Assembly (NCBI GenBank): GCA_049999805.1
Contig: JBNGIO010006373.1
Coordinates: forward strand, 217,172-281,171
DNA: 64,000 bases
Reading direction: 5' to 3'
DNA from: Folioceros fuciformis
Taxonomy: Eukaryota
Shown: piece by piece, positions 3,601-21,400 of the stretch
Layout of the letters: each line of letters starts with the position of its first letter
Numbering within the stretch: the first letter of the stretch is position 1
The notes under the pieces: generated by a model
What the model was told of the DNA's origin: nothing
Databases searched by the model: none
Seen by the model: only the letters and a program-made list of their open reading frames with translations
Made by a program: the position numbers and the translations under genes

Positions 3601-6600
3601 ACTATTATTTTAAGAAGTGAAAGGAGATGAAGAAGAAAGGAGAGGGAAAACAATTCCTGCGAACCGAACAAAAAGCATGCGTCCATGGCGCATACATTCC
3701 ATGTCCTGTTCGGATGTGAAGAAGAGATAATGGAATTTTCACACACCTGAAGTATACCCAGAATTCCTGCACGTCTGAAGATACTCCAGCTGAAAATGCG
3801 AGGAGGTGCAATCCAAAATGGGATGATTATAAGCACAAGCCACAGAAAGGCGAGGAGGCAATTCAGAAGGAATACCCATCGCAGGAATTCGAAAGTCAGC
3901 ATGATAGCAGAACCAAAGTGGCCTTCGATAATTCGGAGATGCTCCACCCACAGACCAGAACTCTCGTGGGTTGCCTGAGGGAGAACATTCAGCTTTAGAC
4001 AACACACATTTTAGGTGCCAGATGTGCAACAAGCTCAAAGGAGTCGAGTATGGACCCCTATCGTATCTCGATAACGTTGCGACACACGCTGGAGCCAGTG
4101 ATTGAGACGGGAAGCAATGCCGGCCTTTTCTACTTCCTTCTTCCCCTCATTCTCCTCTTTTAGACGGCTCTGAAGAATCTGAATCCTTTCTTTGGCCTTC
4201 TGGATAGGAACCAATGCCTGGGGATGAAACCAGAATCCGTCATCACCACCCACCCAGAGAACTTGGACATTGCAAGCCAGCACCATGGTGTTGAGAGTGT
4301 GACTAGCAGAAGGCTATTACTCAACGAAATGGTCTACAGAAAAGGTGTTTTCTTTCAGCTGACGTTGCATACACATCCATGCCTTTATGCGGAGTTTGTC
4401 CAAAGATTGCTCCGAAAGCTTGCATTGTATCCTCTGCAGTTCAGGATACTCTGCGTAATTTGTTGGCCTCCATCTCCTCAGATCCTTCACGGCATATGGG
4501 TCAGATAATTGCCTATCATAGGTAATGGGATGTTCATCACTGATGCGTTCTTTGTCTTCCTCACCTCGCAGCTTGCCAACCTCTGACGTACTTAGGAGTT
4601 GCTGGCCAAGCGGCCAAAGACTGCTGGTTTCGGCCGTAGCGTCAGAGATCGGAACATCGCCCACGTTGTCTCGAGGTGGCCACGACTGTAGATTAGCACC
4701 CTCGTTGCTTGGAAGCAAACTTGAATGTCTCGGACTTGAGTGCAGTCCGCTTGCTTCCGGTCGTAAGTATCCCATCGTCCTGGAGTCGGGTTGGTCTGGG
4801 GGTTCAGTTTCGTTCAAAGGAGCATCACCCAGTTTACCACCTGGTGACCATGATGAGAAACGACTATCCACTCTATCTAAGAGCAAACTTGAGTGACGCG
4901 GAATTTGTCCTGAGAAATGCAGCGCGCTTTGTTCTGCCCCCAGGTGGCTCATGTTCTCGAAGTCAGGTTGGGTCGTGGAGGAATCTCGATCCAGAGGAGC
5001 ATCACCCAACTCGTCTCCATGTGACCACAATTGTGAACCATCACCCAGACTGCTGGGGAACAATCTTAACTGTTCAGCACTTTGCCTTGGAAAATGTCGA
5101 GTCCTTTGGACATTGGGATTGTCAAAGCCATGAAAATCAAGAGTTGGAGAGCCTTGCTCGGAATCGATCTGTGTTGGTGAAGGGACCCTACCAACAAAAT
5201 CTTGAGAGGACGAGGCGGAAGTGAGTCGAAAGGCTTTCTCAGGAACAAAAGGAGGCGGAGTGTGGGTGCCGTTAGCACCGTGGTCAAGTGATGCAGGAAC
5301 ACGGGACGAAGCTCTATGTGGAACTGTTTGGGATAGGCGGAAAGAAAGGGAAGAAGGACTGATGGAAGCATGGTCAGTACTCTGCGAGGCAAGGCCAGGT
5401 GAAGTAGGAGAAAGTGGAGAACCTCTCGCTGAACCTGTTTGTGATGGTCGAAACGAAGTTGTTGAGAAACTGATGTGAGCATGGTGAGTACCTTGCGAGG
5501 CAAGGCCAGGTGAAACAGGGGAAAGTGAAGAACCTCTTGCTGAACCTGTTTGGGATGGTCGAAAGGAAGCTGTTGAGAAACTGATGGGAGCATGGTCAGT
5601 ACCGTGAGAGGCAAGACCAGGTGAAGTAGGGGAAAGTGAAGAACCTCTCGGTGAACCTGTTTGGGATGGTCGAAAGGAAGCTGCTGAGAAGCTTATGGGA
5701 GCATTGTCGGTACCCTGCCAGGTAAGGCCTGGTGAATAAGGAGCATGTGAAGAACCTCTTGGTGAACCTGTTTGGGACGGTCCAAAGGAAGCTGTTGAGA
5801 AATTGACGGGAGCCTGGTCAGTGTCGTGGCATCTCTGAAATGAAGCAGCAAGTTGAGGAGGTCGAAACCCTTGCTGAGATGAAGGATTAACAGCTGCAGT
5901 AGGCGGCTGGTATACTCGGAAAGAGCGGAACCCTTGCTGGAAGGGAGAGTTTCCGGACTGATCAATTCCATCAGCTTGACACTGTTGGGGAGGTCGGAAT
6001 CCTGGTTCGGGAGGGGAGGTCGAAGAGTGAGTTATCCCAGCAGCTGGTTGAAATGCCTGGCGTGGTCGGACCCCTCCTCCTTGCAAGGAAGACTTTGCAG
6101 ACAAACTAGTACCAGCAACTGCTTGAACTTGTTGAGAAGGGCGGAACCCTAGGTGGAAGGGAGAAGTTGTGGACCGGCTGTTTAAATCTCCAGGAGCTCC
6201 TGAAAATTGTTGGGATGGGCAGAATCCTTCTTGGAAGGGAGAGTCTTCAGTCTGTGTCGATGCAGCAGCACCTTCAACCTGTTGGGATAGGCGAAACCCT
6301 ACTTGGAAGCGAGAGCTGTTAGTCTGCGTGGTTCCACCAACCGCTTGAAACTGTTGGGGTGGGCGAAACCCTCCTTCAATCTGGGCAGGACTATCCAAAG
6401 AATTGGCTTCCTCCAAAGACTCTGCAGAGCTCTTATGATCAAAAGCCGGCGGAAATAAATCCTGTCCTACTGAAACCCTGTGCCGGAGACTTGCAAGATC
6501 CAATGGCATTGGCCTGGGTGGCTCCATGGGAATCCATCTGGGTACCACCTTCTCAATCTGGATCTTTGTAGGGCGCCTTCTGCCTCCGTCACCGCCTGTT

Positions 6601-6611
6601 GACAAGGCCAT
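688..6611 (-). CDS. TMC: Transmembrane channel-like (TMC) family protein, multi-exon, with a long repetitive low-complexity N-terminus; 3' end approximate
   Basis: Minus-strand exon peptides match TMC family motifs: WVEHLRIIEGHFGSAIMLTFEFLRWVFLLN (~3860-3955), LLYGGY...YPLAV (~3450-3540), FTSWDFHI (~3215-3250), CMENAIGKQLLRLLLTN (~1955-2010), VVYNQALIWVGSCFSPAAPFL (~1710-1780), CGP (~1395). The large first coding exon lies in ORF 4317-6629; ATG at 6611 follows a tgcag acceptor-like site. Confidence 0.8.
5330..5830 (-). repeat. Coding tandem repeat, 111-bp (37-aa) unit, about 4.5 copies, within the TMC N-terminal exon
   Basis: gcgaggcaaggccaggtgaa-like motif at 5384, 5495, 5606 and 5717 (spacing 111); peptide unit TDHAPISFSTASFRPSQTGSxRGSSLSPxSPGLASQG. 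Confidence 0.9.
5850..6375 (-). repeat. Degenerate coding repeat GFRPxQQ, about 24-aa spacing, about 8 copies
   Basis: GFRPPQQ, GFRLSQQ, GFCPSQQ, GFRPSQQ, GVRPRQA, GFRPPQQ, GFRSFRV and GFRPPQL occur successively in ORF 4317-6629. Confidence 0.8.
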
Positions 6612-6859
6612 CCTCCAATGCCTGCACATGCATAATTGGCACCACCATCTATATGCATCACCACAGAATTGTCATTCTGTGGGCACATTCTCTGTGGCAA
6701 TCGGCCTTCCCACCAACAGAGACCTTCCCTTCCAAGGGAATGGCATATCAAGTAGCAAGTAGCTGATGTGAAATACTCCAGACTTTGCTGGCCGAGAAGC
6801 CCAAGCCTCACGCATGGCACCTCCTTACACATTCACCAAACTTCAAGAAAAGCAAGACT

Positions 6860-6925
6860 TCTTTATAAATTATATCCTGATATATAATGTATTTATATAA
6901 AATTAAATATAAATTAGAACATATA
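6860..6925. promoter_or_regulatory. AT-rich TATA-like core between divergent TMC and PPR gene 1 (putative bidirectional promoter)
   Basis: tttataaattatatcctgatatataatgtatttatataaaattaaatataaa lies between divergent ATGs at 6611 (-) and 6990 (+). Confidence 0.45.
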
Positions 6926-6989
6926 CCTGGTAAGGATGTGCACGAGCTGGGCATCCAGCCATGCATGGGCTCTCGTTGGAGGGTGAACG

Positions 6990-9900
6990 ATGGCCACAGC
7001 ATGGCAGCCAGACCAGTTGTGGGTCCAAGAAACTGCTGTGTGTGCAGGGATTCTGCGAGGAGCTCCTGCCCTCCTCGTCTTGGGAAGTGAACTGCTACCA
7101 AATCGAGCCTCCAGGTTCAGGAGTGTAAGGATCCCAGCACTTCCACCTTTGACAAAGTTTGTGGGTGGGGACGGGCTCTGCACAGATGGTGGCTGCCAGG
7201 AGCAGTTGTGGCAACAGCCCACCGTGTGGTGGGGCAGCAGACGAGATGAGGAGGGCTCGCCGGGGAAGGGGTCCTGGGAGGTGGGGCTCTGGGTCAAGCC
7301 AGAGTCGGGTGATGAGAAGGTCGTTTCTTTGGATATGCACATGGGTCGTGGTGCCTCTCCTTGCGAGTCCTTTTCTGGGGGTGAGACCGGATCCGGGAGG
7401 GGTGAGGAGTCGGAAGTGGGGGACAAGTGGAGTAGTGTGAGGAGCCCGGTGCTTGCAGTTCCGGGGAAATGTGTGGGCGGGGACGGGGTTTCTGACGATG
7501 GCCGTCGCCTCAAACAGCAGGAACAGGAGCAGATGTGGGAGCAGTTTTTCCTGGATCCTTCAATGTGGTGGGACAGGAGAGGAGGTAAGAAGAGCTCCCG
7601 GTCGCCTGATTTCCGGCGCAAGGGGTCCGGAGAGGTCCTGTGGTTAAACAGCATGTTCAAGCCAGCGTGGGTTGATGAGAAACTTGTTTCTTTGGATTTT
7701 CGGATGGGTGGTCATGGGGTGTCTCCTTCCAAGGCGAGCTCTCCGGGTGACTGGGGAGGTGGCAGGCGTGCAGGATCGGAAATGGGTGTCGTGACGGCTG
7801 TGAATGTGATGGCGTTTTGTCAGCAGGGGAGGCTGGTTGAGGCCGTTGGAGCCCTGGAATGTCTTGCGCACACGGACTTTTCTGTTTCTCAGTCTCTGTT
7901 CTACACTGTGCTGAAATTGTGTACGGCTAAGAAGGATTTGGTTATGGGGCGACGAGTTCATGACCTCACTGTGAAAGTAGGGTACGAGTCGGATGCATAC
8001 TTGGGGAACCATATCTTGCGCATGTATGCATGTGGAGGTAGTCTGCAAGAGGCCATGGGCGTGTTCTCCAGGGTGGCCAAACCAACTGCCTTCATGTGGT
8101 CCTCCATTATCTCCGCATATGCTAAGCATGGGAAGCCTAAGGAGGCCATACAACTCTACCATGAGATGCGCAGGTCAGGGGTGAAGGCGGATGCTCACGT
8201 CTTTGTAGCTGCCCTTCAAGCTTGTGCATTTGCCTTCGATTTGGAATCTGGCAGAGAAGTGCACAGTGACGTGTTGCACAGCGGAATTCCTGCTAACTTG
8301 TTCGTTGCCAACTGCCTGGTGGACATGTATGCAAAATGTGGCAAACTGGAAGATGCACGCCAGGTTTTTGACAGCATGGCCTCGAAGGATGTGGTGACAT
8401 GGAATGCCCTGATAGCTGGGTATGCGCAGCAAGGGTTGGGACACGAGACACTGCTTGTGTATGGACAAATGGAGCAGGAGGGCCCGCTTTTGGCCAACCA
8501 TGTTACTTTTGCTTCCCTCCTGAAGGCCTGTGCGAGCGTAGGTGCCTTACAGAAGGGCAGGGAGCTGCACTCACAGATTGTGGAAAGAGGACTGCTGGAT
8601 GACGTAGTGTTGGGCAACTGCCTGGTGGACATGTATGCAAAATGTGGTGAACTGGATAATGCGCGCCAGGTTTTTGACAGCATGGCCACAAGGGATGTGG
8701 TGACGTGTAACGCCCTGATTGCTGGGTATGCCCAGCAAGGGCTCGGACATGAGGCACTTGTTGTGTACGAACAAATGGAGCAGGAGGGCCTGCTTTTGGC
8801 TGACGATGTTACTTTTGCTTGCCTTCTCAAGGCCTGTGCGGGCACTGGTGCGTTACAGAAGGGCAGGGAGCTGCACTCACAGATTGTCAAAAGAGGATGG
8901 GTGGATGACGTAGTGTTGGGGAATTGCCTGGTGGACATGTATGCAAAATGTGGTGAATTGGGAGAAGCACACCAGGTTTTTGACAGCTTGGCCACCAAGG
9001 ATGTGGTGACATGGACTGCGCTGATTGCTGGGTATGCACAGCAAGGGCTTGGACATGAGGCACTTGTGTTGTACGGGCAAATGGAGCAGGAGGGCCTGCT
9101 GTCGGCTAATCACGTTACTTTTGCTTGCCTTCTGAAGGCCTGTGCAAGCACTGGTGCCTTACAAAAGGGCAGGCAGCTGCACTCACTGATTGCTAGAAGA
9201 GGACTGCTGGATAATGTAGTAGTGGGCACCTGCCTGGTGGACATGTACGCAAAGTGTGGTGAACTGGAAGATGCACGACAGGTTTTTGACAGTTTGGCTA
9301 CAAAGAATGTGGTGACATGGAATGCCCTGATTGCTGGGTATGCACAGCAAGGATACGGCCAAGAGGCACTTGTCGTGTATGCACAAATGGAGGAGGCAGG
9401 CCTCATCTTGGCCGATGGTGTTACGTTTGCGTGCCTTCTGAAGGCCTGTGGAATCGCTGGTGCCTTACAGAAGGGCAGGCAGCTGCACTCACTGATAGTC
9501 GAAAGAGGACTGCTGGATGACGGAATGGTGGGTACCTGCCTGGTGGACATGTATGCAAAGTGTGGCGAACTGGAAGATGCACGCCAGGTTTTTGACAGCT
9601 TGGGCACAAAGAATTTGGTGACGTGGACCTCCTTGATCGCTGGATATGTACAGCAAGGACTCGGCCTAGAAGCGCTTGTTGTGTATGGACAAATGCAGGA
9701 GGCGGGCCTCATTTTGGCTGATGAGGTGACTTTTGCCTGTCTCCTGAAGGCCTGTGCGAGCACTAGAGCTTTACAGGAGGGCAGGCAGCTGCACTTGCAG
9801 ATTGTCGACAGAGGACTCCTGGATGACGTTGTGGTGGGCACCTGCCTGGTGGACATGTATGCAAAATGCGGTGAACTGGAAGATGCACGCCAGGTTTTCG

Positions 9901-11141
9901 ACAGCTTGGCCACGAAGAATGTCGTGACATGGAATGCCCTGATTGCTGGGTATGCTCAGCAAGGACTCAGCCTCGAGGCGCTTGTAGTGTATGGAGAAAT
10001 GGAGGAGTCGGGCCTCATTTTGGCTGACGATGTTACTTTTGCTTGCATTCTGAAGGCCTGTGGAAGCAGTGGTGCCTTGCAGAAGGGCAGACAGCTGCAC
10101 TCAGAGATCGTCGAAAGAGGACTGCTGGATAACGTAGTGTTGGGCACCTGCGTGGTGGACATGTATGCAAAATGTGGTGAACTGGAAAAGGCTCGCCAGG
10201 TTTTTGACAGCATGAACACAAAGAATGTGGTGACATGGACCGCCCTGATATCTGGCTATGGTACCTGTGATGAAGGTCGCAAAGCACTAGCTTGTTTTGA
10301 GGAGATGTTAGTAGTCGGTATTCAGCCTCACGAGGCCACTTTTACCTGCCTCTTAGCAGCATGCAGTCACGAGGGCCTGGTCTCCGAAGGTCGCAAGCAC
10401 TTCGATTCCATGGCCGAACAGCATGGTATCAAACCTACTCTTGAGCATCACAATTGCATGATTGATCTTCTTGGTCGTGCAGGCCATTTGGATGAGGCTG
10501 AGAAGATGCTATTGTCGTGTGAGGACCAACGTAATGTGGTGGGCTTGACAACTCTGTTGAATGCCTGCAAAAGTCACGGGGATATAGAGAGGGCCGTGTG
10601 GTGTTTTGAAAGAATTGTTAGGCTGGACCCCCACAGGGCGTCTGCGTATGTGCTCATGGCCAATGCCTACGCAGATGCAGGTCGGTGGAGCGACGTAGAC
10701 AGAATTGAAACACAGAGAATTTTAGCAGGGGCTCACAAGAAGCCTGCAGTTGCGACCATTGAGGTGAACAAGCAGGTAGAGAGGTTTCTGGTGGGAGAAA
10801 GGAGAGAGGATATTGCGTCGAAGGCAGAGAGCACGAACGCGCGTCTGAAGCAGGAAGGAGGCCACGTACCTCACACAAAGCTGGTGTTGAAGCCACTGGG
10901 CGAGAAGGAAAAGGAAGATGCGCTTTGTGGACATGCTGAGAAACTGGCTCTTGCGTATGGCCTCTTGAACACTCCGAGTGGGACACCTCTGGTGGTAACG
11001 AAGAATCTACGAATGTGCAGTGACTGCCACAGCTCCACGGAGATCATGTCAAGGCTTGAGCGGAGAGACATCGTTGTCAGGGATGGGTACCGGGTCCATC
11101 GATTCGCGGCTGGTTGTTGCAGCTGTAAGGGTCGACCGTAA
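6990..11141 (+). CDS. PLS-class PPR protein with E1-E2 and DYW:KP (GRP-ending) deaminase-type domain; candidate U-to-C organellar RNA editing factor; N-terminal OSB-PDF-like module
   Basis: Intronless 1383-aa ORF with repeated P (VVTWNALIAGYAQQG), L (VTFACLLKAC) and S (CLVDMYAKCG) motifs, then P2-L2-S2, E1 and E2. C-terminal domain has KKPAVATIEV, HAEKLA, KNLRMCSDCH and ends CSCKGRP. Confidence 0.95.
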   Translation: MATAWQPDQLWVQETAVCAGILRGAPALLVLGSELLPNRASRFRSVRIPALPPLTKFVGGDGLCTDGGCQEQLWQQPTVWWGSRRDEEGSPGKGSWEVGLWVKPESGDEKVVSLDMHMGRGASPCESFSGGETGSGRGEESEVGDKWSSVRSPVLAVPGKCVGGDGVSDDGRRLKQQEQEQMWEQFFLDPSMWWDRRGGKKSSRSPDFRRKGSGEVLWLNSMFKPAWVDEKLVSLDFRMGGHGVSPSKASSPGDWGGGRRAGSEMGVVTAVNVMAFCQQGRLVEAVGALECLAHTDFSVSQSLFYTVLKLCTAKKDLVMGRRVHDLTVKVGYESDAYLGNHILRMYACGGSLQEAMGVFSRVAKPTAFMWSSIISAYAKHGKPKEAIQLYHEMRRSGVKADAHVFVAALQACAFAFDLESGREVHSDVLHSGIPANLFVANCLVDMYAKCGKLEDARQVFDSMASKDVVTWNALIAGYAQQGLGHETLLVYGQMEQEGPLLANHVTFASLLKACASVGALQKGRELHSQIVERGLLDDVVLGNCLVDMYAKCGELDNARQVFDSMATRDVVTCNALIAGYAQQGLGHEALVVYEQMEQEGLLLADDVTFACLLKACAGTGALQKGRELHSQIVKRGWVDDVVLGNCLVDMYAKCGELGEAHQVFDSLATKDVVTWTALIAGYAQQGLGHEALVLYGQMEQEGLLSANHVTFACLLKACASTGALQKGRQLHSLIARRGLLDNVVVGTCLVDMYAKCGELEDARQVFDSLATKNVVTWNALIAGYAQQGYGQEALVVYAQMEEAGLILADGVTFACLLKACGIAGALQKGRQLHSLIVERGLLDDGMVGTCLVDMYAKCGELEDARQVFDSLGTKNLVTWTSLIAGYVQQGLGLEALVVYGQMQEAGLILADEVTFACLLKACASTRALQEGRQLHLQIVDRGLLDDVVVGTCLVDMYAKCGELEDARQVFDSLATKNVVTWNALIAGYAQQGLSLEALVVYGEMEESGLILADDVTFACILKACGSSGALQKGRQLHSEIVERGLLDNVVLGTCVVDMYAKCGELEKARQVFDSMNTKNVVTWTALISGYGTCDEGRKALACFEEMLVVGIQPHEATFTCLLAACSHEGLVSEGRKHFDSMAEQHGIKPTLEHHNCMIDLLGRAGHLDEAEKMLLSCEDQRNVVGLTTLLNACKSHGDIERAVWCFERIVRLDPHRASAYVLMANAYADAGRWSDVDRIETQRILAGAHKKPAVATIEVNKQVERFLVGERREDIASKAESTNARLKQEGGHVPHTKLVLKPLGEKEKEDALCGHAEKLALAYGLLNTPSGTPLVVTKNLRMCSDCHSSTEIMSRLERRDIVVRDGYRVHRFAAGCCSCKGRP
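8290..10240 (+). repeat. Highly similar 306-bp (102-aa P-L-S triplet) tandem units in PPR gene 1
   Basis: gtggacatgtatgcaaaatgtgg-like motif recurs every 306 bp (about 8318, 8624, 8930 and onward). Confidence 0.9.
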
Positions 11142-11784
11142 TAAGAACAAGCCTATTCTCAAGTCTCTGTACGCCAGAGATTTGCTTCTTCCTTGCAGCC
11201 GAGTTTGCTTGCCTGATTTGCATCCCTGTCCAATTTGATCGCATACTCTGGTGTCTGGACCCTTCCATCCAGTTGCGGGACTTGGTACCAGCATGGAACA
11301 GTTCGGTGATCATGGCCGAAGCTTCTTGCTGAGGGAAAGCACATCCTCAGAAGATCAGGGTCAGGACGTCGAATTTGTTTCGTAAGCGATCACGATCACA
11401 ATAGCTAGCACATGCATCAGACTGGGGGTTAGACACTGCCTTGTCCGTTAACTTTCTGCATTGATATGCCACTACCACAACGTGATGATTTCCTCGCCGT
11501 TGGAGGTCTGATGCTCCTAGGTAGACAAGTAGGAGCCGCAACTCATGAAAAGACTGCATGTTATAGATTTGTAAACTACGTATTCTTTTGAGACGAGAGA
11601 TGGGGTGAGCCCGTGTACCGACATGTCCTTCGCAAGACTGGCTCTAACTCAGCTAAAACAAAACAAAACGAGACTCGTGAAGGACTCCGCCAGATGTTCA
11701 GTCCACAAGAAGCAGTACCAGCTATCTACCAGAGTTCTTAGAACACAATTCCGACCCGTATTTATTCCGGGAACGAGAAGCTTA

Positions 11785-13803
11785 CTACCTTCGTTCTGTC
11801 TTGCCTGTTGACCGCTTGCCAGAAAACAGATGTTTCGGTTTGGGGTTGTACACGACTCTATCACCTTCACCCTTCCTGGCATCCTTGTTTCTCTGCTTGT
11901 GAGCCTTCCTGGCCAGCTTTATGGCCTTGGTCTTCTGAGCAGTGTCCTTGAAGCCCTCTCCAGGCTGGGCCTCAAAAACAGGACGTGAGCGAGATCTGGA
12001 CCTTGTCTTCAGTCTCTTGCTAGGCTGATCGATGTCCATGGCATCCACATCCTCGGTAGCCGTACTCACTGACCTATCTCTCTTCCTTCCTCTCCTGGAG
12101 ACAGACCTACTTCGAGCTCTCTCAATGGCCGCACTTGGATCTAAGCCTAGGGAGCGAAGGTGTCTCCCCATTTTGTCAGTGGACAACAGACCATCTCGAT
12201 CTGCTGTCCTTGGCAGTACAGGCCTGCTGTGACCTACAGTTTTCTTTGATCTATGCTCCAATAGCAACTGCTTCTTCCTCCTCCGAATCGCTGCAAGAGC
12301 CTTCTTCTCCTCTTCGGTGAGTTCTTCTCCATCTTCCATGTCCTCATCTTCACCCTCAGCTGCCTCACGGGCAGCCTCTTCCCGCTCCAACTCATCGAGC
12401 CTCTGCAGGATGTCAGCATCCACAAAGTCTGCAATGTTATGACCATCAACGATCTCAGGCACGATGTCATCCTTCCAGCTGTCATCCAGCAGCAAGTAGT
12501 GCTTGTGGAGATTGGCAGAATACACTCCAGCACCACCATGCTTGTTCTCCAGGTCCCTTTCGAGTACTCTGCCTTGAGATACAGATACACCTTTAGCCTG
12601 TGCGTCCAGCACAGCCTGCGGAATGCAAGGTGGTCGATCCTTCGCATCTCTCGCCTTTGGCATTGCCACATGGATCCTATTCAAACAATCATTCATTTTC
12701 TTCGATTTCATCTTCACCTCCACTCTTTGCTGAAGCAAACGCTCACATGCTGCATTTTTTACTGCTATCACCCCCTCCTCTGTCAGGGTGCTCATGGTCA
12801 TCAAACAACCCTCCTCGTCCAGAGAGCTAGAGTCAGCAAACACCCCTGCCGAACACCTAGCAGCCTCCCTCCTCATGTCACCAAGAAGCTGCCTCTCATC
12901 CTCAGACAGCATCTCCAAGGGCTGCAAGTCGATCTTGTTGCAGGCAACCAACACAGGTTTGTTGGCAAACAAGGGCTTGATGCTGTGGAACAGAGCAGCC
13001 TGCTGTGCTAGAGAATATCCACATGCCCCAGACAGATCACAAACAAAAAGCACAGCCGCACGGAGATGGGCAAGTGCAGTCACACTCAGCATTTCGATGG
13101 TATTACGGTCCTCCAGCGGATGATCCAGAATGCCAGGGGTATCAATCACCTGCCATCTCAGATATTTATAATCCGTGTGACCTACAAACAGGGATTTAGT
13201 GGTAAATGCATACGGCTGCACATCAACATCGGCCCTCGTTATCTTGTTGATGAAGGAACTCTTCCCCACGTTCGGATATCCACATATGAGAATAGTCCTC
13301 GTGTTAGGGTCAATGGAAGGGAGCCGTGACATATGCTGCCTAACCTGCTCCAGGTAGGCCAGACTAGGGCCAATCCTCTTCATCAGCGTGCACATCCTTC
13401 CCAACGCTGCCTTCTTCAGCTGCTTGCACCGGTACAACGAATCTCCATACTTCAGCAGGCGGACATAATCCTTGGCAATCTTCTCCACCAAATTCCGAGC
13501 AGTGTTCACTTGCGCCAGAGCAAGCTTATAGTGATCTTTATCATACAAGACGTTCAACAGATCACCATAGAAAGGATGGATGTCATCAAGGCGGGGGAAG
13601 TCGTCTATGATGGTGCTCAGCTTGTCATGAAAGGTCTGCTGAGTGAACTTCACCTTGCGCATGTAGAATTGACGGATGCGATTGATCGCGTAACCTTTGT
13701 GCACCACCGTTGGTGTCTGCCGCTGGGTCCGGGAGAGCACGATGTCCACAAAATCCTTGCCCGTGGGTACCACCGTGATCTTCTTGAAGTTGTAGAGCAC
13801 CAT
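11785..13803 (-). CDS. NOG1: Nucleolar GTP-binding protein 1 (NOG1/GTPBP4), intronless
   Basis: 672-aa ORF starting MVLYNFKKITVVP; LSRTQRQTPTVVHKGY; G1 GYPNVGKSS, G2 QPYAFTT, G3 DTPG, G4 NKID; C-terminal NOGCT-type end PKHLFSGKRSTGKTERR. Confidence 0.97.
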   Translation of the reverse strand: MVLYNFKKITVVPTGKDFVDIVLSRTQRQTPTVVHKGYAINRIRQFYMRKVKFTQQTFHDKLSTIIDDFPRLDDIHPFYGDLLNVLYDKDHYKLALAQVNTARNLVEKIAKDYVRLLKYGDSLYRCKQLKKAALGRMCTLMKRIGPSLAYLEQVRQHMSRLPSIDPNTRTILICGYPNVGKSSFINKITRADVDVQPYAFTTKSLFVGHTDYKYLRWQVIDTPGILDHPLEDRNTIEMLSVTALAHLRAAVLFVCDLSGACGYSLAQQAALFHSIKPLFANKPVLVACNKIDLQPLEMLSEDERQLLGDMRREAARCSAGVFADSSSLDEEGCLMTMSTLTEEGVIAVKNAACERLLQQRVEVKMKSKKMNDCLNRIHVAMPKARDAKDRPPCIPQAVLDAQAKGVSVSQGRVLERDLENKHGGAGVYSANLHKHYLLLDDSWKDDIVPEIVDGHNIADFVDADILQRLDELEREEAAREAAEGEDEDMEDGEELTEEEKKALAAIRRRKKQLLLEHRSKKTVGHSRPVLPRTADRDGLLSTDKMGRHLRSLGLDPSAAIERARSRSVSRRGRKRDRSVSTATEDVDAMDIDQPSKRLKTRSRSRSRPVFEAQPGEGFKDTAQKTKAIKLARKAHKQRNKDARKGEGDRVVYNPKPKHLFSGKRSTGKTERR

Positions 13804-14337
13804 CGCGCTCCAACTTTTCTCCCCCTAGCCTGCGGGAGTAGTCAATCTCCCAGAGGCGGTAGGCTGCCCCAGCCTACCGTGTTGCTCCGACACATCAATA
13901 TATATAGTCTCCTCTACACAGAACCCTATCATATTTTCAAAATAAAATAAAAATAATTAGCAGTTGCCCCTGAGATAGAATCCAGTACCCCCTTCCTTTT
14001 CGACCCTTTGCAGCAGTGTGGAAATAGCAACGATATCCTTAATGTTCTCAAGGTTGATGAATCCTTGCTGCGTCCGTCTAATCTCGGCCAGGGGCTCGGC
14101 AGCTGGGAAGGGTATGGTGCGGCGGTGTAATTCTCAGGGCTAAGCAACAAGCAGAGGTGACAACGGTGAAGGTCTGAACAGCAGCAGGGTTCTTGTCACT
14201 TGCAAGCTCCACGGAGCGCAATCTCACCCAAGGTGGTGGCGATGTCCGGGTTCCTCAAAGAGAAGTGCGACAGCAGTTTGGAGATGATATTACCCTTGCA
14301 CTGACAATTTGCAGTTGCAGCTCCACGATAGCTTACA

Positions 14338-17300
14338 ATGGAAACTATATGGCAACCGGATCCGTTGTCTATCCAACAAATTCCGTGTACTGGGATGCTA
14401 GGACGAGCTCCCGCTCACCTTGCCGTGTATTGTCAGCCGTTGGGAAGTCACCAAGCGTCCAGGTGCAGCAGTGTAAGGAATGTGGAGCGATTTTCCAGCG
14501 ATTCTGACCCCCAGTCTCAAGCCCTGGAGGAGGAGCTACTGTGGCGACAGTTTTTTCTGGACCCTGCCATGTGGTGGGATAACAGGCGAGGTAAGGATAG
14601 CTCGTCTTCGCCGCACTTCCGGCGGAAGGGGTCCCGCCAGGTCCTCTGGGTAAACAGCATTTTCAAGCCAGCTTGGGTGGAGGAACAGCTCGTTTCTTTG
14701 GATATGCACATGAGTCATACTGCCTCTCTTTCGAAGTCCAGCTCTCCGGACTATGGTAGGCTTGCAGGGTCGTCGGAAGTCGGGGTGGTAACGCCTGTAA
14801 CCGTGAGCAATTTTTGTCAACAGGAGAACCTTGCTGAGGCCGTGGGAGCGCTGGAGTCTCTTGCGCACACCAATTGTCATGTTTCTCAGTCTCTCTTGTA
14901 TACTGTCGTAAGGCTATGTGCGGCGAAGAAGGATCTGGTGGCGGGGCGACGAGTGCATCATCTCGTAGTTAAACTTGGGCGCGAGTCCGATGCGTACTTG
15001 GGGAACAATATCTTGCGCATGTATGCGGGTGGAGGGAGGCTCGATGAGGCGATGGATGTGTTCACCAGAGTGGGGAAGCCGAATGCCTTCATCTGGTGTT
15101 CCATAATCTCCGCCCATGCTAAACATGGGAAACCTAAGGAGGCCATACAACTGTACCATGAGATGCGTCGCTCAGGTGTGAAGGCGGATGCTCACGTGTT
15201 TGTAGCAGCCCTTCAGGCCTGTGCTTTTGCTGCCGACTTGGAATCCGGCAGAAAAGTGCACTATGATGTGGTGCACAACGGCGTCCCTCCTAACTTGTTT
15301 GTTGGCAACTGCCTGGTGGACATGTACGCGAAATGTGGCGAACTGAAAGATGCACGCAGGGTTTTTGACAGCTTGGCCACAAAGGATGTGGTGACATGGA
15401 CGTCCCTGATTGCTGGGTATGCAAATCATGGGNNNNNNNNNNATGTGGTGACATGGACGTCCCTGATTGCTGGGTATGCAAATCATGGGCTTGGCCACGA
15501 GGCGCTTGTCCTGTACGACCAAATGGAACAGGACGGCTTCATTGTGGGTAATCATATCACTTATGCTTGCCTCCTGAAGGCCTGTGCAAGCACTGGTGCG
15601 TTGCAGAAGGGCAGGGAGTTGCACTCACAGGTTGCAGCAAGAGGACTTTTAGATAGCATGCTTGTGGGCAACTGCCTGGTGGACATGTATGCAAAGTGTG
15701 GTGAAGTGGAAGATGCGCGCACGGTTTTTGACAACTTGGCCACGAAGGACGTGGTGACTTGGAATGCCTTGATTGCTGGGTATGCACAACAAGGGCTTGG
15801 CCAAGAGGCGCTTTCTCTGTATGGGCAAATGCAGAAGGAAGGCCTAGTTGTGGAGAGCTGTGTTACTTTTGCTTGCCTTCTGAAGGCTTGTGCAAGTGCT
15901 GGTGCCTTACAAAAGGGGAGACAACTGCATTCTCATATTGTGGAGAGAGGGCAGCTAGACAACATTATCGTGGGCAACTCCCTGGTGGACATGTATGCAA
16001 AATGTGGCGAACTAGAAGCCGCACGCCAGGTTTTTGACAGTTTGACCACAAAGGATGTTGTGACATGGAATACTCTGATTGCAGGGTACGCACAGCTAGG
16101 GCTGGACCAGCAGGCGCTTCTTTTGTATGACCAGATGCAGCAGGAGGGCCTGGTTGCGGGTAACCATGTTACCTTTGCTTGCCTTCTGAAGGCTATTGCA
16201 AGTGCTGGTGCCATACGGAAGGGGAGGCAACTTCATTCTCACATTGTTGAAAGAGGACAGCAGGATAACATACTTGTGGGGAACTGCCTTGTGGATATGT
16301 ATGTAAAATGTGGCCAAATGGAAGATGCACGCCAGGTTTTTGACCACTTGGGGACAAGGGATGTAGTGACATGGACCGCCATGATTGCTGGGTATGCAAG
16401 TCATGGACTTGGCCAAGAGGCGCTTCTCCTTTATGCTCAAATGGAGCAGGAAGGCTTTGTTGTGGGTAACCATGTCACTTTCGCTTGCCTTCTGAAGGCG
16501 TGTGCAAGCGCTGGTGCATTACAGATGGGCAGGCAGCTGCACTTACAGATCGTGGCAAGGGGAGGACAACTAGATGACATTCTCGTAGGCAATTGCCTTG
16601 TGGACATGTATGCAAAGTGTGGTGAAGTTGAAGAGGCACGTCGGGTCTTTGATAGCTTGGCCACAAAGGACGTGGTGACATGGAATTCCATGATTTCTGG
16701 ATATGTACAACAAGGTTTGGGCCAAGAGGCGCTTTTTCTGAGTGAGCAAATGGAGCAGGAGGGCCAGATTGTGGGGAACGACTTTACTTTTGCTTGCCTT
16801 CTGAAGGCCTGTGCAAGCTCAGGTTCCTTACAGATGGGCAAGCAGCTGCACTCAAGGATTGTGGAAAGAGGACAGTTAGATAACGTAATTGTGGGCAACT
16901 GCCTGGTGGACATGTATGCAAAATGTGGCGAACTGGAAGATGCACGCCGGGTTTTTGACAGTTTGACAACAAAGGATGTGGTGACATGGAATGCCCTGAT
17001 CGCCGGGTGTGGTACTTGTGATGAAGGTGATCACGCTTTAGCTTGTTTTGAGGAAATGTTGAACGCAGGTATTCAGCCCAGTGATGCTACTTTTACTTGC
17101 CTCTTGGCAGCATGCAGTCACTCGGGACTGGTGAATGAGGGTCGAAAGCACTTTGATTCTATGGTGGAGCGTGGCATTAGACCTACTATTGAGCATTACA
17201 ATTGTATGATTGATCTTTTTGGGCGTGCAGGCTATTTGGATGAAGCAGAGAACATGTTATTATTATGTGAGAGCCAAGGCAATGTTGTTGGGTTGACGTC

Positions 17301-17889
17301 TTTACTGAATTCCTGCAGAAGGCATGGGGATGTATTGAGGGCGACTCGGTGTTTTGAGAGTCTGATTAGACTGGAGCCTCAGGATGCATCTGCATATGTG
17401 CTGATGGCCCATGCCTATGCAGATGCAGGTAGGTGGACCGATGCAGGGAGGATTGAAAAACAGAGAATGGTAGTAGGGGCCATAAAAAAACCTGCCGTGG
17501 CAGGTATTGAGGTGGAGAAGCAGGTACACACTTTTGTGGTGGGAGAAAACAGAGGTGATATTGCATTCAAGGTAGAGAGCGTGAATGCACGACTGACGCA
17601 GGAAGGGGGTCACGTACCACACACAAAGTTGGTCCTGAAGCCTCTCTCTGAGAAGGAAAAAGAAGATGCACTTTGTGGGCACGCCGAGAAGCTAGCTCTA
17701 GCTTTTGGTCTCTTGAACACTCCGAGTGGTACTCCTCTGGTGGTAACGAAGAATCTACGCATGTGCAGCGACTGCCACAGCTCTACTGCGATATTGTCAA
17801 GGGTTGAACAGAGAGACATTGTTGTAAGAGATGGGTTCCGGGTCCATCGATTTGCAGCTGGATCTTGCAGTTGTAAGGGTCGACCGTGA
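14338..17889 (+). CDS. Second PLS-class PPR DYW:KP (GRP-ending) protein, paralog of 6990-11141; spans a 10-N gap
   Basis: 1183-aa ORF with PLS triplets, P2-L2-S2-E1-E2, KKPAVAGIEV, HAEKLA, CSDCH and ending CSCKGRP. N-terminus has WRQFFLDPAMWWDNRRGKDSSSSPHFRRKGSRQVLWV. Confidence 0.93.
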   Translation: METIWQPDPLSIQQIPCTGMLGRAPAHLAVYCQPLGSHQASRCSSVRNVERFSSDSDPQSQALEEELLWRQFFLDPAMWWDNRRGKDSSSSPHFRRKGSRQVLWVNSIFKPAWVEEQLVSLDMHMSHTASLSKSSSPDYGRLAGSSEVGVVTPVTVSNFCQQENLAEAVGALESLAHTNCHVSQSLLYTVVRLCAAKKDLVAGRRVHHLVVKLGRESDAYLGNNILRMYAGGGRLDEAMDVFTRVGKPNAFIWCSIISAHAKHGKPKEAIQLYHEMRRSGVKADAHVFVAALQACAFAADLESGRKVHYDVVHNGVPPNLFVGNCLVDMYAKCGELKDARRVFDSLATKDVVTWTSLIAGYANHGXXXXVVTWTSLIAGYANHGLGHEALVLYDQMEQDGFIVGNHITYACLLKACASTGALQKGRELHSQVAARGLLDSMLVGNCLVDMYAKCGEVEDARTVFDNLATKDVVTWNALIAGYAQQGLGQEALSLYGQMQKEGLVVESCVTFACLLKACASAGALQKGRQLHSHIVERGQLDNIIVGNSLVDMYAKCGELEAARQVFDSLTTKDVVTWNTLIAGYAQLGLDQQALLLYDQMQQEGLVAGNHVTFACLLKAIASAGAIRKGRQLHSHIVERGQQDNILVGNCLVDMYVKCGQMEDARQVFDHLGTRDVVTWTAMIAGYASHGLGQEALLLYAQMEQEGFVVGNHVTFACLLKACASAGALQMGRQLHLQIVARGGQLDDILVGNCLVDMYAKCGEVEEARRVFDSLATKDVVTWNSMISGYVQQGLGQEALFLSEQMEQEGQIVGNDFTFACLLKACASSGSLQMGKQLHSRIVERGQLDNVIVGNCLVDMYAKCGELEDARRVFDSLTTKDVVTWNALIAGCGTCDEGDHALACFEEMLNAGIQPSDATFTCLLAACSHSGLVNEGRKHFDSMVERGIRPTIEHYNCMIDLFGRAGYLDEAENMLLLCESQGNVVGLTSLLNSCRRHGDVLRATRCFESLIRLEPQDASAYVLMAHAYADAGRWTDAGRIEKQRMVVGAIKKPAVAGIEVEKQVHTFVVGENRGDIAFKVESVNARLTQEGGHVPHTKLVLKPLSEKEKEDALCGHAEKLALAFGLLNTPSGTPLVVTKNLRMCSDCHSSTAILSRVEQRDIVVRDGFRVHRFAAGSCSCKGRP
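15433..15442. other. Assembly gap (10 N) flanked by an identical 47-bp duplication
   Basis: atgtggtgacatggacgtccctgattgctgggtatgcaaatcatggg occurs at 15386-15432 and again at 15443-15489. Confidence 0.95.
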
Positions 17890-18420: not shown

Positions 18421-21400
18421 ATGGAGGAATCGTTGAAGACGTTTGATGTTCACGACGCTGTGAGGAGACTGGGGGCACGCCATCCCGCTCTTCTCACCTG
18501 NNNNNNNNNNNNNNNNNNNNNNNNNNNNNNNNNNNNNNNNNNNNNNNNNNNNNNNNNNNNNNNNNNNNNNNNNNNNNNNNNNNNNNNNNNNNNNNNNNNN
18601 TTTGATTCTCTAGTACGTGGTTGCAGGGAGGGGCAGGGGGTCGAGGAGCCTCGACTGGTTGCAGTTCTGGAACGCTTGCTGCTAGACCCGCAATTCACAG
18701 TCGCTGTGGTGGGCTGTTTCCGGCCAATTGTTCCGAGGATTGTGGATGAGCTCATACGGTCTCTGGACGACGGACGAAGGGAAGGGCAAGCTGAGTTCGC
18801 CACCCATGCCACCTCTAGTTCGCCAAATGGGTCGACGTGGGGCTTAAGTCGCCATGAGTATGCGGTCATGGCTTTGAGCCGGACTTTGGAGCTGGCTCCG
18901 CATGTGCTGAGGTGAGCCGTGGGAATTCGGTGGGAATTGGGTGACAGGCGGTCCGAGGATTACTGATTTAGTTGGGGGGATTTTTGGCAGTGCGGTGTTG
19001 CAGTACTTTCAGTTTTCCCCTCCTCCTTTTGAACGTCTTCTGCGTGGGGGTGCCCCTGGGAGTCCCGTCTCAGGAGCTTGTTCGGATGCAATGGTAGGCT
19101 CCATGACGGGGATGGCTGTGTTGAGGCTAATTCTTCTTCGTATGCGGACTGCCTGACCCTGTGCCGGATGGTGTTCAGGAAGCACCGCCTCTACTGGACG
19201 TCCTTCGTGCGTCGTACCGGTTGCTGCTCTTGGAGCCCTGCATTTTCCGTGACAAGTGGGACTGGAGCTCCTTTCTGGAGCTCTTGCACTGGGATGGAGG
19301 CGACAGTCAGCTTCGAGCGGATGTTCGGTGGTGTGCCACGCAAGTGGTGTCCATTGTGCTGAGGATGAGCGATATTGCAAGGCAGAAATTATGCGTTCAG
19401 ATCGCCGAGCTGGATGAAGAGACGGCTGTTGCATGTTTGTTCAGGTTCGTTGTTGATTGGTGTGGCGGGAAATGGTGGTGCAGCTGATTACTGTATATGG
19501 GGAGTGGCCGTTAGTATCGATATCTGTTTGTGGTACGTATCACAGAAAAGCACAGCCATCTCAATCTGTCGCCTTTGTGTTCTGAATTGGGCAGGTGGGA
19601 AGAATATTGTCAAGATGTAGCTGTTGAGAAGGCTGGGATGTACATGGAGCGTGACCTTGTACAAGGTGTCCGAAAAGTCAGTTTGCAAGATGAACCCACG
19701 AAGGTGGGACTGACAGCAAAGTTTAGGGATGGAAACTTCTCGAAAGTTGAAATTTGTGGCATTGAGCTCCCAAGGAAGCAGTGTTCAAGTTTGGGGTAAA
19801 GCTTCAATGGAGAACCAACTTGTAGTAGTGTCAATTGTCACCGGGCTGAGTTTTGTTCATTGGTGGAGGCTTACTCGTTGACCATTGCACGCAGGGTAGA
19901 GCCTCAAAACGGCTTGTTTGTTATGACTTCAACAGCCAGGAGTAGCCTGGAAGCTGTTGTACTGGCATTGAGCCAAAAGTTGCCAATTCTTCTGGAGGGA
20001 CCAGTGGGCGCTGGAAAGTCGTCACTGGTCCAGGAGGTGGCTCGCCTTACAGGCAATTTAGGTTTCTTACTAAAACTTCACTCACTGTAAGCTTGTCCTG
20101 TTCAAGTCCAGGATAACTTAGAGAGTCTCCATTAAGCATTCACACGTTTGCATGCTGTTAATTAGATATATTATTCATCCATTTGGATGATCAGATGGAT
20201 AGCAAGACCTTGCTGGGGAGCTATATGTGCACAGACACTCCCGGCGAGTTCCAGTGGCAGCCAGGCGCCCTGACGCAAGTATGATTCTATCCCTGGTTGT
20301 GAAGATCCCTTAATGGGGAGTCGAAAACCAGCTTTTTTGTGTCCGCTTCTGACCAACTGGCATGACAGGCTGTCACCAGAGGATTGTGGGTCGTGTTCGA
20401 GAACATTGACAGAGCTCCTTCTGAGATCTTGTCTGCACTGACACCATTATTAGAGGATGGGAAACTGTACATTGCAGGAAGAGGAGAGGTACGCTGGTTA
20501 CATCTCGTTGCTGCCCATTTGGCTGCTGCCCTGCAGGTCTTGTGCAGTGGTGTATCTATGCGGTATCCGAAGAGCTGAGAATTGTATCTCCCGCCGATGC
20601 AGGTTATCCAGGCTGTTGAGAATTTTAGGCTCTTTTCAACAGTGACAAGTTTGGATTCTGCTCAAAGATTAAGTTGGGGAGGTACATGCATGTTTCTTGT
20701 AGTTTATCAGGATGGTTGTGCTATCATGAATCATCTCATATGTTCAATGTGTCGTGGTGCAGGTGGCCACATGTTGAGTAGTCTGTGGCGAAGAGTGGTT
20801 CTTGACTCGCCGAAAGATGAAGAGCTGGCCCTGATTCTTGAAGGACGCTTTCCAAGACTGGGGCTCTTGGTCACCAGGCTGAAAGGTCTGTAGGTGGACG
20901 CATTTCAGGTTCCAGCATTGGCCTGAACTGCACGCACTTTCCTGTGGCTTCTGTTAACCTCTCTAGGTGGCATCTTAGGTACTATGGAGAAGTTGCAGTC
21001 AGCAGATAAGTTAAGTGGAAGGCCAATACACTTTGGTCATCCATTTTCAACCAGGTAATGGCATTTGTGTACCTTTCTCTTGGTGGCAGATTTGTTTCCA
21101 TGCATAGAGGGTTGATTGTTGAAACTTTACAGCGATGTCTGTATTGGCGACTGATCATATCTGTATTGTAACAGGGATCTCATTAAGTGGTGTTATAGGT
21201 TGTCTTCTTTTGTGCCTGAAACTCCTGCCAGTCTCTGCTTGCCCGAGTCTTTGCTGGAACGTGTTTATGTGGAGGTACACGCTTCTGCTACTTGTGCAAC
21301 AATTGTGATTGGAGTGTAGGTGCCTTGACAAAGCGTTGGTTCTATACACAGTTTGTTCGTCGATTTTCAATGCCTCATGGTCGCCCTTGTCTCTTATTTG

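Follow-up and report, generated by a model that had tools for sequence, protein, structure and literature searches.

An intact PPR gene with a DYW:KP domain assigned to the hornwort GRP type, a candidate U-to-C RNA editing factor

Introduction

To our knowledge, U-to-C RNA editing is the only pyrimidine transition that still lacks a biochemically characterised native enzyme. In the window studied here (the whole stretch of DNA that was analysed, 64,000 nucleotides), an earlier note had pointed to a variant DYW domain in a gene, named gene 1 below, as a candidate for such an enzyme. The locus raises the question of which class of DYW domain gene 1 encodes and in which direction its protein would edit RNA.

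The KP subclass of DYW domains carries Lys-Pro instead of Pro-Gly in the N-terminal box (accessible text of PMC11845758 and PMC9478123), and most, but not all, of the KP domains described in the available literature extracts are 132-133 residues long and lack xHP. GRP and DRH are two hornwort DYW:KP subgroups, and the published GRP proteins are restricted to hornworts according to the accessible text of PMC9478123. In the literature searched, as far as its accessible text goes, knowledge of U-to-C editing was obtained from consensus designer proteins, which stall at a crosslinked intermediate in bacteria; only such proteins had been assayed there, and no assay of a native DYW:KP protein was found.

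Results

Gene 1 encodes a PLS-class PPR protein

Gene 1 was uninterrupted in a stop-to-stop frame from 6987 to 11141, in which the first ATG lies at 6990 (Table 1). As to the start, gene 2, a paralogue on the same strand, was homologous to gene 1 from its own first methionine onward. The PPR array was matched as a whole by Pfam PPR, PPR_1 and PPR_2 together with E_motif. The motifs were framed by hand against the PPR motif consensus, and they alternated as P (35-36 residues), L (35-36) and S (31-32), followed by E1 and E2, which is the arrangement of the PLS class. The last six P1-L1-S1 triplets were 102-residue (306-base) units, and the DNA identity between units was 80-86%. Open frames were also present on the minus strand over gene 1, for example 6914-7711 and 8216-9109; openness within G+C-rich repeats is all that speaks for them.

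Table 1. Positions of gene 1, its parts and gene 2 in the window
Feature	Position	Strand	Basis or remark
Gene 1 CDS	6990..11141	+	Complete, intronless, 1383 codons and TAA stop (11139-11141)
N-terminal region without PPR motifs, aa 1-266	6990..7787	+	Putative organelle targeting peptide presumed inside
"WW...(PDF)...LW" module, degenerate copy	~7200-7430	+	Gene 1 N-terminal region
"WW...(PDF)...LW" module, better copy	~7527-7730	+	Gene 1 N-terminal region
First P-L-S triplet, degenerate, aa 267-366	7788..8087	+	Motif framing
Seven P1-L1-S1 triplets	8088..10226	+	Pfam PPR, E 3.9e-137
P2-L2-S2 motifs	10227..10535	+	Motif framing
E1 and E2 motifs	10536..10739	+	Pfam E_motif, E 5.9e-14, and framing
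DYW:KP deaminase-like domain, assigned to GRP subgroup, 133 residues	10740..11138	+	Pfam, alignment, tree, model
K-P-A replacing x-P-G of the PG box	10740..10748	+	Translation, row counts by tree side
Point at which four residues of PG domains are missing, between R and E of "GERR/ED"	10803..10808	+	HMMER alignments
H-A-E: zinc-binding His, Ala for the Ser of PG domains, catalytic Glu	10932..10940	+	Translation
Active-site Lys (K of TKNLRMC), equal to Lys88 of designer KP proteins and K915 of OTP86	11001..11003	+	
M-C-S-D-C-H: CxxC zinc ligands, next His, and KP-typical Met before the first Cys	11013..11030	+	Translation
C-terminal G-R-P replacing D-Y-W, then TAA	11130..11141	+	Translation
Gene 2, PPR-DYW:KP paralogue, also ending KGRP	14338..17889	+	3 kb downstream of gene 1

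The C-terminal domain retains the deaminase residues

The Pfam family DYW_deaminase (PF14432) matched the C-terminal domain far beyond chance (E 1.1e-33, 115 bits, cut-off 24). The translation of 10737-11138 reads KKPAVATIEV...FLVGERREDIASK...CGHAEKLA...KNLRMCSDCH...CSCKGRP, in which the replacement of the PG box by KKPAVATIEV (10737-10766), the HAEKLA zinc site, the intact CSDCH and the GRP end can all be read as the earlier note had claimed. A DYW:KP domain does lie where that note had placed it, but its start is shifted by one residue: in the usual motif framing the first K (10737-10739) still belongs to E2, which it closes, and the domain proper occupies 10740-11138. In HMMER alignments with the solved PG-type domains 9kfx (synthetic PPR-DYW) and 7o4e (OTP86), a four-residue gap follows "GERR" at xHP. 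The gating insertion given in the accessible text of the OTP86 paper, H837-G891, begins at the His of xHP, so the gating region of gene 1 is shortened and without HP, in agreement with the earlier description.

The residues H66, E68, K89, C94, C97, H98, H121 and C130 were invariant in the 49 aligned KP-type proteins and all of them are present in gene 1; the catalytic and zinc-binding residues of its domain are thus all intact. The active-site Lys was invariant in 153/153 rows of the tree below as well as in 49/49 KP rows, and because PG domains share it, this Lys is necessary but does not discriminate the KP class. The AlphaFold2 model of the domain had a mean pLDDT of 87.9. Its best match among solved structures was the DYW domain of the RNA-bound synthetic PPR-DYW protein 9kfx_A (TM 0.92, rmsd 1.4 Å), followed by OTP86, and bacterial deaminases were matched more weakly than the DYW crystal structures. 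A deaminase-like fold was predicted with confidence from the model, and with its H-x-E...C-x-x-C motifs it would be of the zinc-dependent kind.

Phylogeny places the domain in the GRP clade of the KP side

A total of 153 DYW domains, from 219 domain matches in 195 proteins, were used for tree construction after the rows that did not span query positions 5-128 had been dropped. Two trees were made by quick searches with SH-aLRT as the only support measure, one from 137 columns (full) and one from the 112 columns left after removal of the signature columns (PG-box, deletion, HxE-middle, K103-equivalent and C-terminal). A KP side of 59 rows was separated from a PG side of 94 rows with a support of 100 in the full tree and 98 without the signature columns. 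Gene 1 was located on the KP side in both; clustering with DYW:PG domains, which the earlier note had named among the outcomes that would count against its reading, was looked for and did not appear. All six GRP-ending rows, including genes 1 and 2, formed one clade (support 98 in the full tree and 92 without the signature columns), within which the grouping of gene 1 with gene 2 had a support of 97 in the full tree.

The two sides of the tree differed in their signature residues. In the PG-box triplet, K was found in 47/59, P in 49/59 and A in 46/59 rows of the KP side, while the third position was G in 87/94 rows of the PG side. The segment with the deletion had 7 residues in 27/59 KP-side rows and 11 residues in 91/94 PG-side rows. 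The H and E of HxE were invariant in all 153 rows, with a middle residue of A (37/59) or C (13/59), the two substitutes for Ser that characterise DYW:KP domains, on the KP side and S (93/94) on the PG side, and the residue before the first Cys of CxxC was M in 48/59 KP-side rows and V (62/94) or I (17/94) on the PG side. At each of the signature positions that were counted, gene 1 carries the residue prevailing on the KP side (K, P, A, C, G, A, M); it also has the deletion, and it shows none of the four hallmarks of canonical DYW:PG domains (PG box, xHP, HSE and DYW terminus). The K103-equivalent of gene 1 is Glu (STEIMS) and its position -3 is Gly; none of the six GRP rows has Lys at the K103-equivalent. 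For GRP proteins, the accessible text of PMC9478123 describes the Asp(-3)/Lys103 pair as lost, with Glu in the place of Lys. The assignment of gene 1 to the GRP type of DYW:KP proteins is supported by motif, length and phylogeny.

The neighbouring NOG1 protein was 75-77% identical to lycophyte, moss, liverwort and fern proteins, about equidistant from them and closer to none. These identities fit a non-seed land plant that is absent from the named records. The assignment to hornworts comes from the published confinement of GRP proteins to that group.

Gene 2, selection and family size

Gene 2 is interrupted by a 10-N assembly gap (15433-15442), and sequence is duplicated on both sides of the gap. 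The DYW domains of genes 1 and 2 were 86% identical. The dN/dS between the two genes was 0.12 in the DYW domain (dS 0.75) and 0.27 in S2-E1-E2, and the former value at this dS shows that the DYW domain has been under long-term purifying selection ever since the two genes duplicated.

The segment 10150-11800 (1.65 kb) was compared with four sequencing runs, X1 being guessed as RNA and X2 as DNA in kind. In two runs of the same organism, 1713 and 2211 contigs matched at a likeness of at least 85%, and the coding part of the segment was swamped by paralogous contigs. One X1 contig and one X2 contig matched 11030-11800 without a difference; the former has 2854 letters and would extend into NOG1. 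These exact matches establish the presence of the sequence in the organism and are uninformative on transcription.

An N-terminal module is shared by several PPR-DYW proteins

The two copies of the N-terminal module of gene 1 were 43% identical over 75 columns (E 2e-9, as a single comparison). One copy of the module, LW..FF.DP..WWD.R...PDF+.K...LW, is present in gene 2. The nearest GRP relative has the module as well, and so do two further PPR-DYW proteins, of which at least one is PG-type. No Pfam family matched the module at E up to 10, no match better than E 0.1 was obtained among PDB sequences, and none of the 16 candidates from a word-based search of longer proteins reached E 0.01. In the protein atlas, no usable match was found for the gene 1 module, and only PPR clusters at 0.75-0.76, below the lead level, for the P0097 module. 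An accessory element that binds single-stranded nucleic acid, with kinship to the PDF motif found in OSB proteins of plant organelles, is a doubtful proposal for this module; the likeness is drawn from the P-D-F signature and from the prose description of the OSB motif in the accessible text of PMC6963530. If it held, a subset of native editing factors would possess a second RNA-contacting part that is absent from every designer protein, and this part could matter for site selection, or for release of the crosslinked intermediate at which consensus KP proteins stall.

Predicted function and RNA target of gene 1

Gene 1 probably encodes a nuclear PLS-class PPR protein of the hornwort GRP subgroup of DYW:KP that acts as a site-specific U-to-C editor of an organelle transcript, the host being a hornwort-like land plant; by analogy with the designer KP proteins, we put the probability of this reading at about 0.8. 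The protein would be imported into the chloroplast or the mitochondrion, where its ~27 PPR-type motifs would bind one RNA sequence in register. Reading the P and S motifs with the PPR code, and aligning S2 to position -4, gives the putative target 5'-G n U Y n U U n U A n A U n A G n A U n A ? n Y n n n [U]-3', which specifies 16 of the 27 positions, since L, E1 and E2 are non-predictive and the P2 code pair is unusual (T/H). A low-complexity or repetitive target, as might be imagined from the near-identical triplets, was considered and rejected: the specificity positions (5 and last) vary from triplet to triplet, and the prediction is non-repetitive.

The E1, E2 and DYW:KP parts would then set the uridine four nucleotides downstream in the zinc-containing deaminase-like site (His, Glu, Cys-x-x-Cys). 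There, the active-site Lys is expected to attack C4 of the uridine on the way to cytidine, giving a covalent RNA-protein intermediate as published for designer KP proteins, and in plants this intermediate would next have to be resolved to free cytidine. Designer KP proteins need Lys88 for U-to-C editing (accessible text of PMC11845758). A current proposal in the available literature extracts makes this lysine the donor of the nitrogen, by way of an RNA-protein crosslink; the amination chemistry, called poorly defined in the earlier note, is less undefined than that. That synthetic DYW:KP proteins edit U-to-C, as the same note stated, is borne out by the GRP-based KP2 and KP3, for which U-to-C conversions of ~26% and ~22% and no detected C-to-U were reported in E. 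coli (accessible text of PMC9478123). The occurrence of this variant class in hornworts, ferns and some lycophytes with U-to-C editing, also stated in the note, is likewise in print. The word "candidate" chosen for gene 1 is apt, U-to-C editing being predicted.

Discussion

Hornwort GRP-type PPR-DYW:KP proteins were reportedly described for Anthoceros by Gerke et al. in 2020. The class and its GRP subgroup are already published, and gene 1 is one more member of a very large described family. It resembles the hornwort GRP type in the KP box, the 133-residue domain without xHP, the HAE, the GRP end and the clade, and in lacking the Lys partner of the DYW Asp, Glu being found instead. Its closest database relative shared only 73% identity with it across E2-DYW and 77% across the DYW domain. 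Gene 1, like gene 2, ends in K-G-R-P, while the remaining four GRP rows end in G-G-R-P. Hornwort GRP-type proteins served as the basis for the designer consensus proteins KP2 and KP3 (accessible text of PMC9478123), whereas gene 1 is a native single gene and not a consensus design. The hornwort DRH type, the basis of KP1, shares the KP signatures and the deletion, and both trees place it as sister to the GRP clade (support of the joint 19-row set, 91 and 97); unlike the GRP rows, the DRH rows keep Asp at -3 and mostly keep Lys at the K103-equivalent.

Fern and lycophyte DYW:KP proteins, the basis of KP5 and KP6, likewise fall on the KP side; their HxE reads HAE or HCE and their ends are other than DYW. 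Differently from gene 1, they form a separate subclade in which many keep the longer segment of 11 residues, some with HP (25/59 KP-side rows). The fern/lycophyte-based KP6 is the best-studied U-to-C editor in the available literature extracts and has dual activity. The DYW:PG factors OTP86 (7o4e, 7o4f), 9kfx and DYW1 (7w86) share the fold of the gene 1 model (TM 0.78-0.92), and the zinc and catalytic residues, the active-site Lys and the PLS-E1-E2-DYW architecture are common to both. However, these factors carry PG, xHP, HSE, Val or Ile before CxxC and the DYW end, edit C-to-U and lie across a branch with a support of 100.

The outcome of the reaction is not fixed by domain class alone, because KP6 also edits C-to-U and the designer proteins stall in crosslinked form in bacteria. 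It is unlikely that the gene 1 protein deaminates cytidine at its native site, alone or beside U-to-C editing. Gene 1 retains every residue of the hydrolytic deaminase set (His, Glu, Cys, Cys), which would permit this; in the available literature extracts, KP6 is active as a C-to-U editor both in human cells and in vitro, and a few substitutions, or mutation of Lys88, switch KP2, KP3 and KP6 to C-to-U. Against this, gene 1 possesses Lys88, agrees with the KP-side majority at the counted signature positions and carries the deletion, and in the E. coli data cited above its GRP-based counterparts KP2 and KP3 edited in the U-to-C direction only.

There is a small chance that gene 1 is a silent or redundant paralogue, with an intact frame but little expressed or without a site of its own, as the huge family (1713 and 2211 contigs in two runs) and a paralogue only 3 kb downstream might suggest. 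A frame open across 1383 codons, the purifying selection on the DYW domain and the variation of specificity positions among otherwise similar triplets argue against it. KP2, KP3 and KP6 remain crosslinked to RNA in bacteria, and suicide enzymes were raised as a possibility by their authors in the available literature extracts. A gene 1 protein for which the lysine adduct is the end point, acting as a stoichiometric RNA crosslinker or translation regulator, or as a single-use reactant, is nevertheless highly improbable: the same kind of extracts record native U-to-C edited RNAs of the fern Ceratopteris as not crosslinked, and editing sites as lying mainly within coding sequences that need translation. 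The reading of gene 1 as a site-specific U-to-C editor is the one preferred here.

Gene 1 is one among a great many such genes, and the current picture of U-to-C editing is unchanged by its existence. It is a native GRP-type gene that is intact and under purifying selection; its PPR code can be read, and a close paralogue is there to compare it with. Gene 1 would be a reasonable construct for asking whether natural sequences finish the reaction.

Anatomy of gene 1 and of its DYW domain

The region 10737-11141, in which the earlier note had described a DYW:KP/GRP deaminase domain, was the 3' end of the long open frame of gene 1. All the motifs listed for it were found in the translation, and the frame ended with ...KKPAVATIEVNKQVERFLVGERREDIASK...CGHAEKLA...TKNLRMCSDCH...CSCKGRP, then TAA. 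The 134 residues alone as query matched Pfam DYW_deaminase (E 1.1e-33), and the gene 1 protein read from 7770 matched PPR (E 3.9e-137), PPR_2 (E 4.3e-129) and E_motif (E 5.9e-14). The domain was confirmed as real rather than a chance pattern.

Manual framing against the PLS consensus gave an N-terminal region of 266 residues that carries no PPR motif, then one degenerate P-L-S triplet, seven P1-L1-S1 triplets and P2-L2-S2, followed by E1 and E2, and a DYW domain of 133 residues starting at K-P. The last six triplets were 102-residue units (80-86% identity in DNA, 73-82% in protein), and despite this likeness they differed at the two positions that set specificity, 5 and last. Among their 102 codon columns, 28 varied synonymously only and 48 varied with amino-acid change; the four specificity columns of P1 and S1 were all among the varying ones, as was the last L1 residue, and L1 position 5 was Ala in 6/6 units.

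Features in the window
Feature	Position	Strand	Remark
Ser/Pro/Gln-rich frame	4317-6671	-	784 residues, repeated 'FRPSQTGS(P/A)RGSS' units
Gene 1 open frame	6987-11141	+	stop to stop; first ATG 6990; 1383 codons
N-terminal module, gene 1	7200-7430, 7527-7730		two copies
PLS triplet units, gene 1	8391-10226		six successive, 306 bases each
DYW domain, gene 1	10740-11138	+	C-terminal GRP
Lys88-equivalent lysine, gene 1	11001-11003
NOG1 GTPase gene	11785-13824	-	intronless
Gene 2	14338-17889	+	paralogue of gene 1, also ends KGRP
N-terminal module, gene 2	14533-14740
10-N run in gene 2	15433-15442
100-base N run	18501-18600		another assembly gap
Long open frames, AAA-ATPase-like	22207-24249, 27587-30221	+
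Strongly acidic frame	39902-41779

The N-terminal module had the form LW..FF.DP..WWD.R......P[DH]F.RKGS..VLW.....KP.WV.E.LVSLD, and its two copies in gene 1 shared 43% identity over 75 columns. When 194 collected PPR-DYW proteins were searched by regular expression, the module was also found in P0002, P0097 and P0115; a fourth match, P0014, looks unrelated. The PDF motif of plant OSB proteins is described in PMC6963530 as a 50-residue motif that binds ssDNA and is named for Pro-Asp-Phe, a signature that the module carries; a relation between the two was confirmed by no tool.

Placement of the DYW domain on the KP side

HMMER alignments with solved PG-type domains, namely the synthetic PPR-DYW protein 9kfx (E 5.3e-35), OTP86 (7o4e, E 3.8e-29) and DYW1 (7w86), revealed a four-residue gap after GERR in gene 1, where the xHP residues of PG domains fall; these residues open the gating insertion (H837-G891) of OTP86 as described in the literature. 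A word-based search with 626 candidates detected 48 homologues whose E value was 0.001 or better, and the best 25 of the 48 (P0002-P0026, 46-73% identity over E2-DYW) all read HAE and none ended in DYW, their ends being, for example, GGRP and GDRH. When 1.84 billion representatives were searched exhaustively without a profile, 2389 proteins reached E 0.001 or better; the best 150 of these were used further. From the resulting 195 proteins phmmer yielded 219 domain matches, of which the 153 spanning query positions 5 to 128 were kept and the partial ones were dropped.

Both trees were quick IQ-TREE searches under the LG+C20 model with SH-aLRT support. In the all-column tree (137 columns), the KP side (59 rows) was separated from the PG side (94 rows) with support of 100, gene 1 and gene 2 were joined at 97, and a six-row GRP clade was recovered at 98. 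This tree was partly circular because the row labels were drawn from the same sequences, and it was therefore repeated after the columns of the PG box, deletion segment, HxE middle residue and K103 equivalent, and the last four columns, had been taken out; the respective supports over the remaining 112 columns were 98, 97 and 92. The GRP clade adjoined rows ending in DRH. The domain phylogeny, proposed in the earlier note as a check, thus placed gene 1 on the KP side in both trees, and since this placement persisted without the signature columns, gene 1 does not cluster with PG domains, the outcome that the earlier note had named as refuting its reading.

Invariant across the 153 rows of both sides, and present in gene 1, were the HxE residues His and Glu, the KNLRxC lysine, the two CxxC cysteines with the next His, the xVHxF His and the last CxC Cys. 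At the positions separating the two sides, gene 1 had the KP-side majority state every time. In PG domains a Lys forms a pair with the Asp of DYW; 0/6 GRP rows had this Lys, and gene 1 had Glu in its place, in agreement with the description of GRP proteins in PMC9478123.

States at positions separating the KP and PG sides
Position	Gene 1	KP side	PG side
First box residue	K	K 47/59	mixed, commonest E 21/94
Third box residue	A	A 46/59	G 87/94
HxE middle	A	A 37/59, C 13/59	S 93/94
Residue before CxxC	M	M 48/59	V 62/94, I 17/94
Gating-start segment	7 residues	7 residues in 27/59	11 residues in 91/94

An AlphaFold2 model of the domain, built with 49 KP-type sequences, had a mean pLDDT of 87.9 and a pTM of 0.81. 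As modelled, the predicted fold superposes on the DYW domains of the RNA-bound synthetic PPR-DYW protein (9kfx_A; TM 0.92, rmsd 1.4 A) and OTP86 (TM 0.78-0.81); sequence and fold searches of the PDB returned no solved structure labelled KP-type.

Paralogue and neighbouring genes

Gene 2 was 64% identical to gene 1 overall and 86% in the DYW domain. The dN/dS between them was 0.12 in the DYW domain (dS 0.75) and 0.27 in S2-E1-E2, which points to long-standing purifying selection acting on each copy. The frame of gene 2 was interrupted only by its 10-N run, with the same 15 residues (VVTWTSLIAGYANHG) on each side, and the gap looks like an assembly join within the repeat array rather than a true lesion. 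In two runs labelled as coming from the same organism, 1713 and 2211 contigs matched the 1.65-kb stretch 10150-11800 at a likeness of at least 85%, in keeping with a paralogous family of very large size.

Between the two genes lies the gene for the nucleolar GTPase NOG1, convergent with gene 1 (stop codons about 640 bases apart), with a frame of 679 residues carrying Pfam NOG1_N, NOG1 and NOGCT. Its best named relatives were from a lycophyte (77%), Sphagnum mosses (76-77%), a liverwort (76%) and ferns (75%), and a transcriptome record matched at 83%. Judged by this likeness, the window comes from the nuclear genome of a non-seed land plant. The two AAA-ATPase-like frames presumably resemble midasin (MDN1) exons, a candidate identity, and we take the acidic frame to suit the linker of the same candidate gene.

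Proposed function

Gene 1 has all the sequence-level features that define the DYW:KP class and its GRP subgroup, and lacks those of DYW:PG, the canonical C-to-U class. These motifs, together with the KP-side placement, support the proposal of the earlier note that gene 1 is a candidate U-to-C editing factor, to which we give a probability of roughly 0.8. If gene 1 works like the designer proteins that have been assayed, its PPR array would bind one organelle RNA, and the DYW:KP domain would convert to cytidine the uridine that lies four nucleotides beyond the base bound by S2; we infer the direction of the reaction, its target, import and turnover on the same basis. The P and S motifs were decoded with the PPR code, S2 being set opposite -4, which predicts as target 5'-G n U Y n U U n U A n A U n A G n A U n A ? 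n Y n n n [U]-3', in which ? marks the unusual P2 code pair T/H.

According to PMC9478123, GRP and DRH are the two hornwort subgroups of DYW:KP, which makes a hornwort the likely source of the window. In the same paper KP2 and KP3, two consensus designer proteins based on GRP proteins, gave about 26% and 22% U-to-C editing in E. coli with no C-to-U editing reported there. Editing by KP2, KP3 and KP6 is described as accompanied by RNA-protein crosslinking with a mass shift of about 319 Da, modelled as attack of a lysine on uridine C4. In the published account native fern editing sites carry no crosslink, so plants must resolve the intermediate. The active-site Lys88 is given as essential in PMC11845758, where its change makes all three proteins C-to-U editors.

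The DYW:KP class and the GRP subgroup are already known, and gene 1 adds a member, not set apart from its many paralogues save perhaps by its N-terminus. The literature search turned up no native DYW:KP protein that had been assayed, and native genes like gene 1 therefore stay useful test objects.
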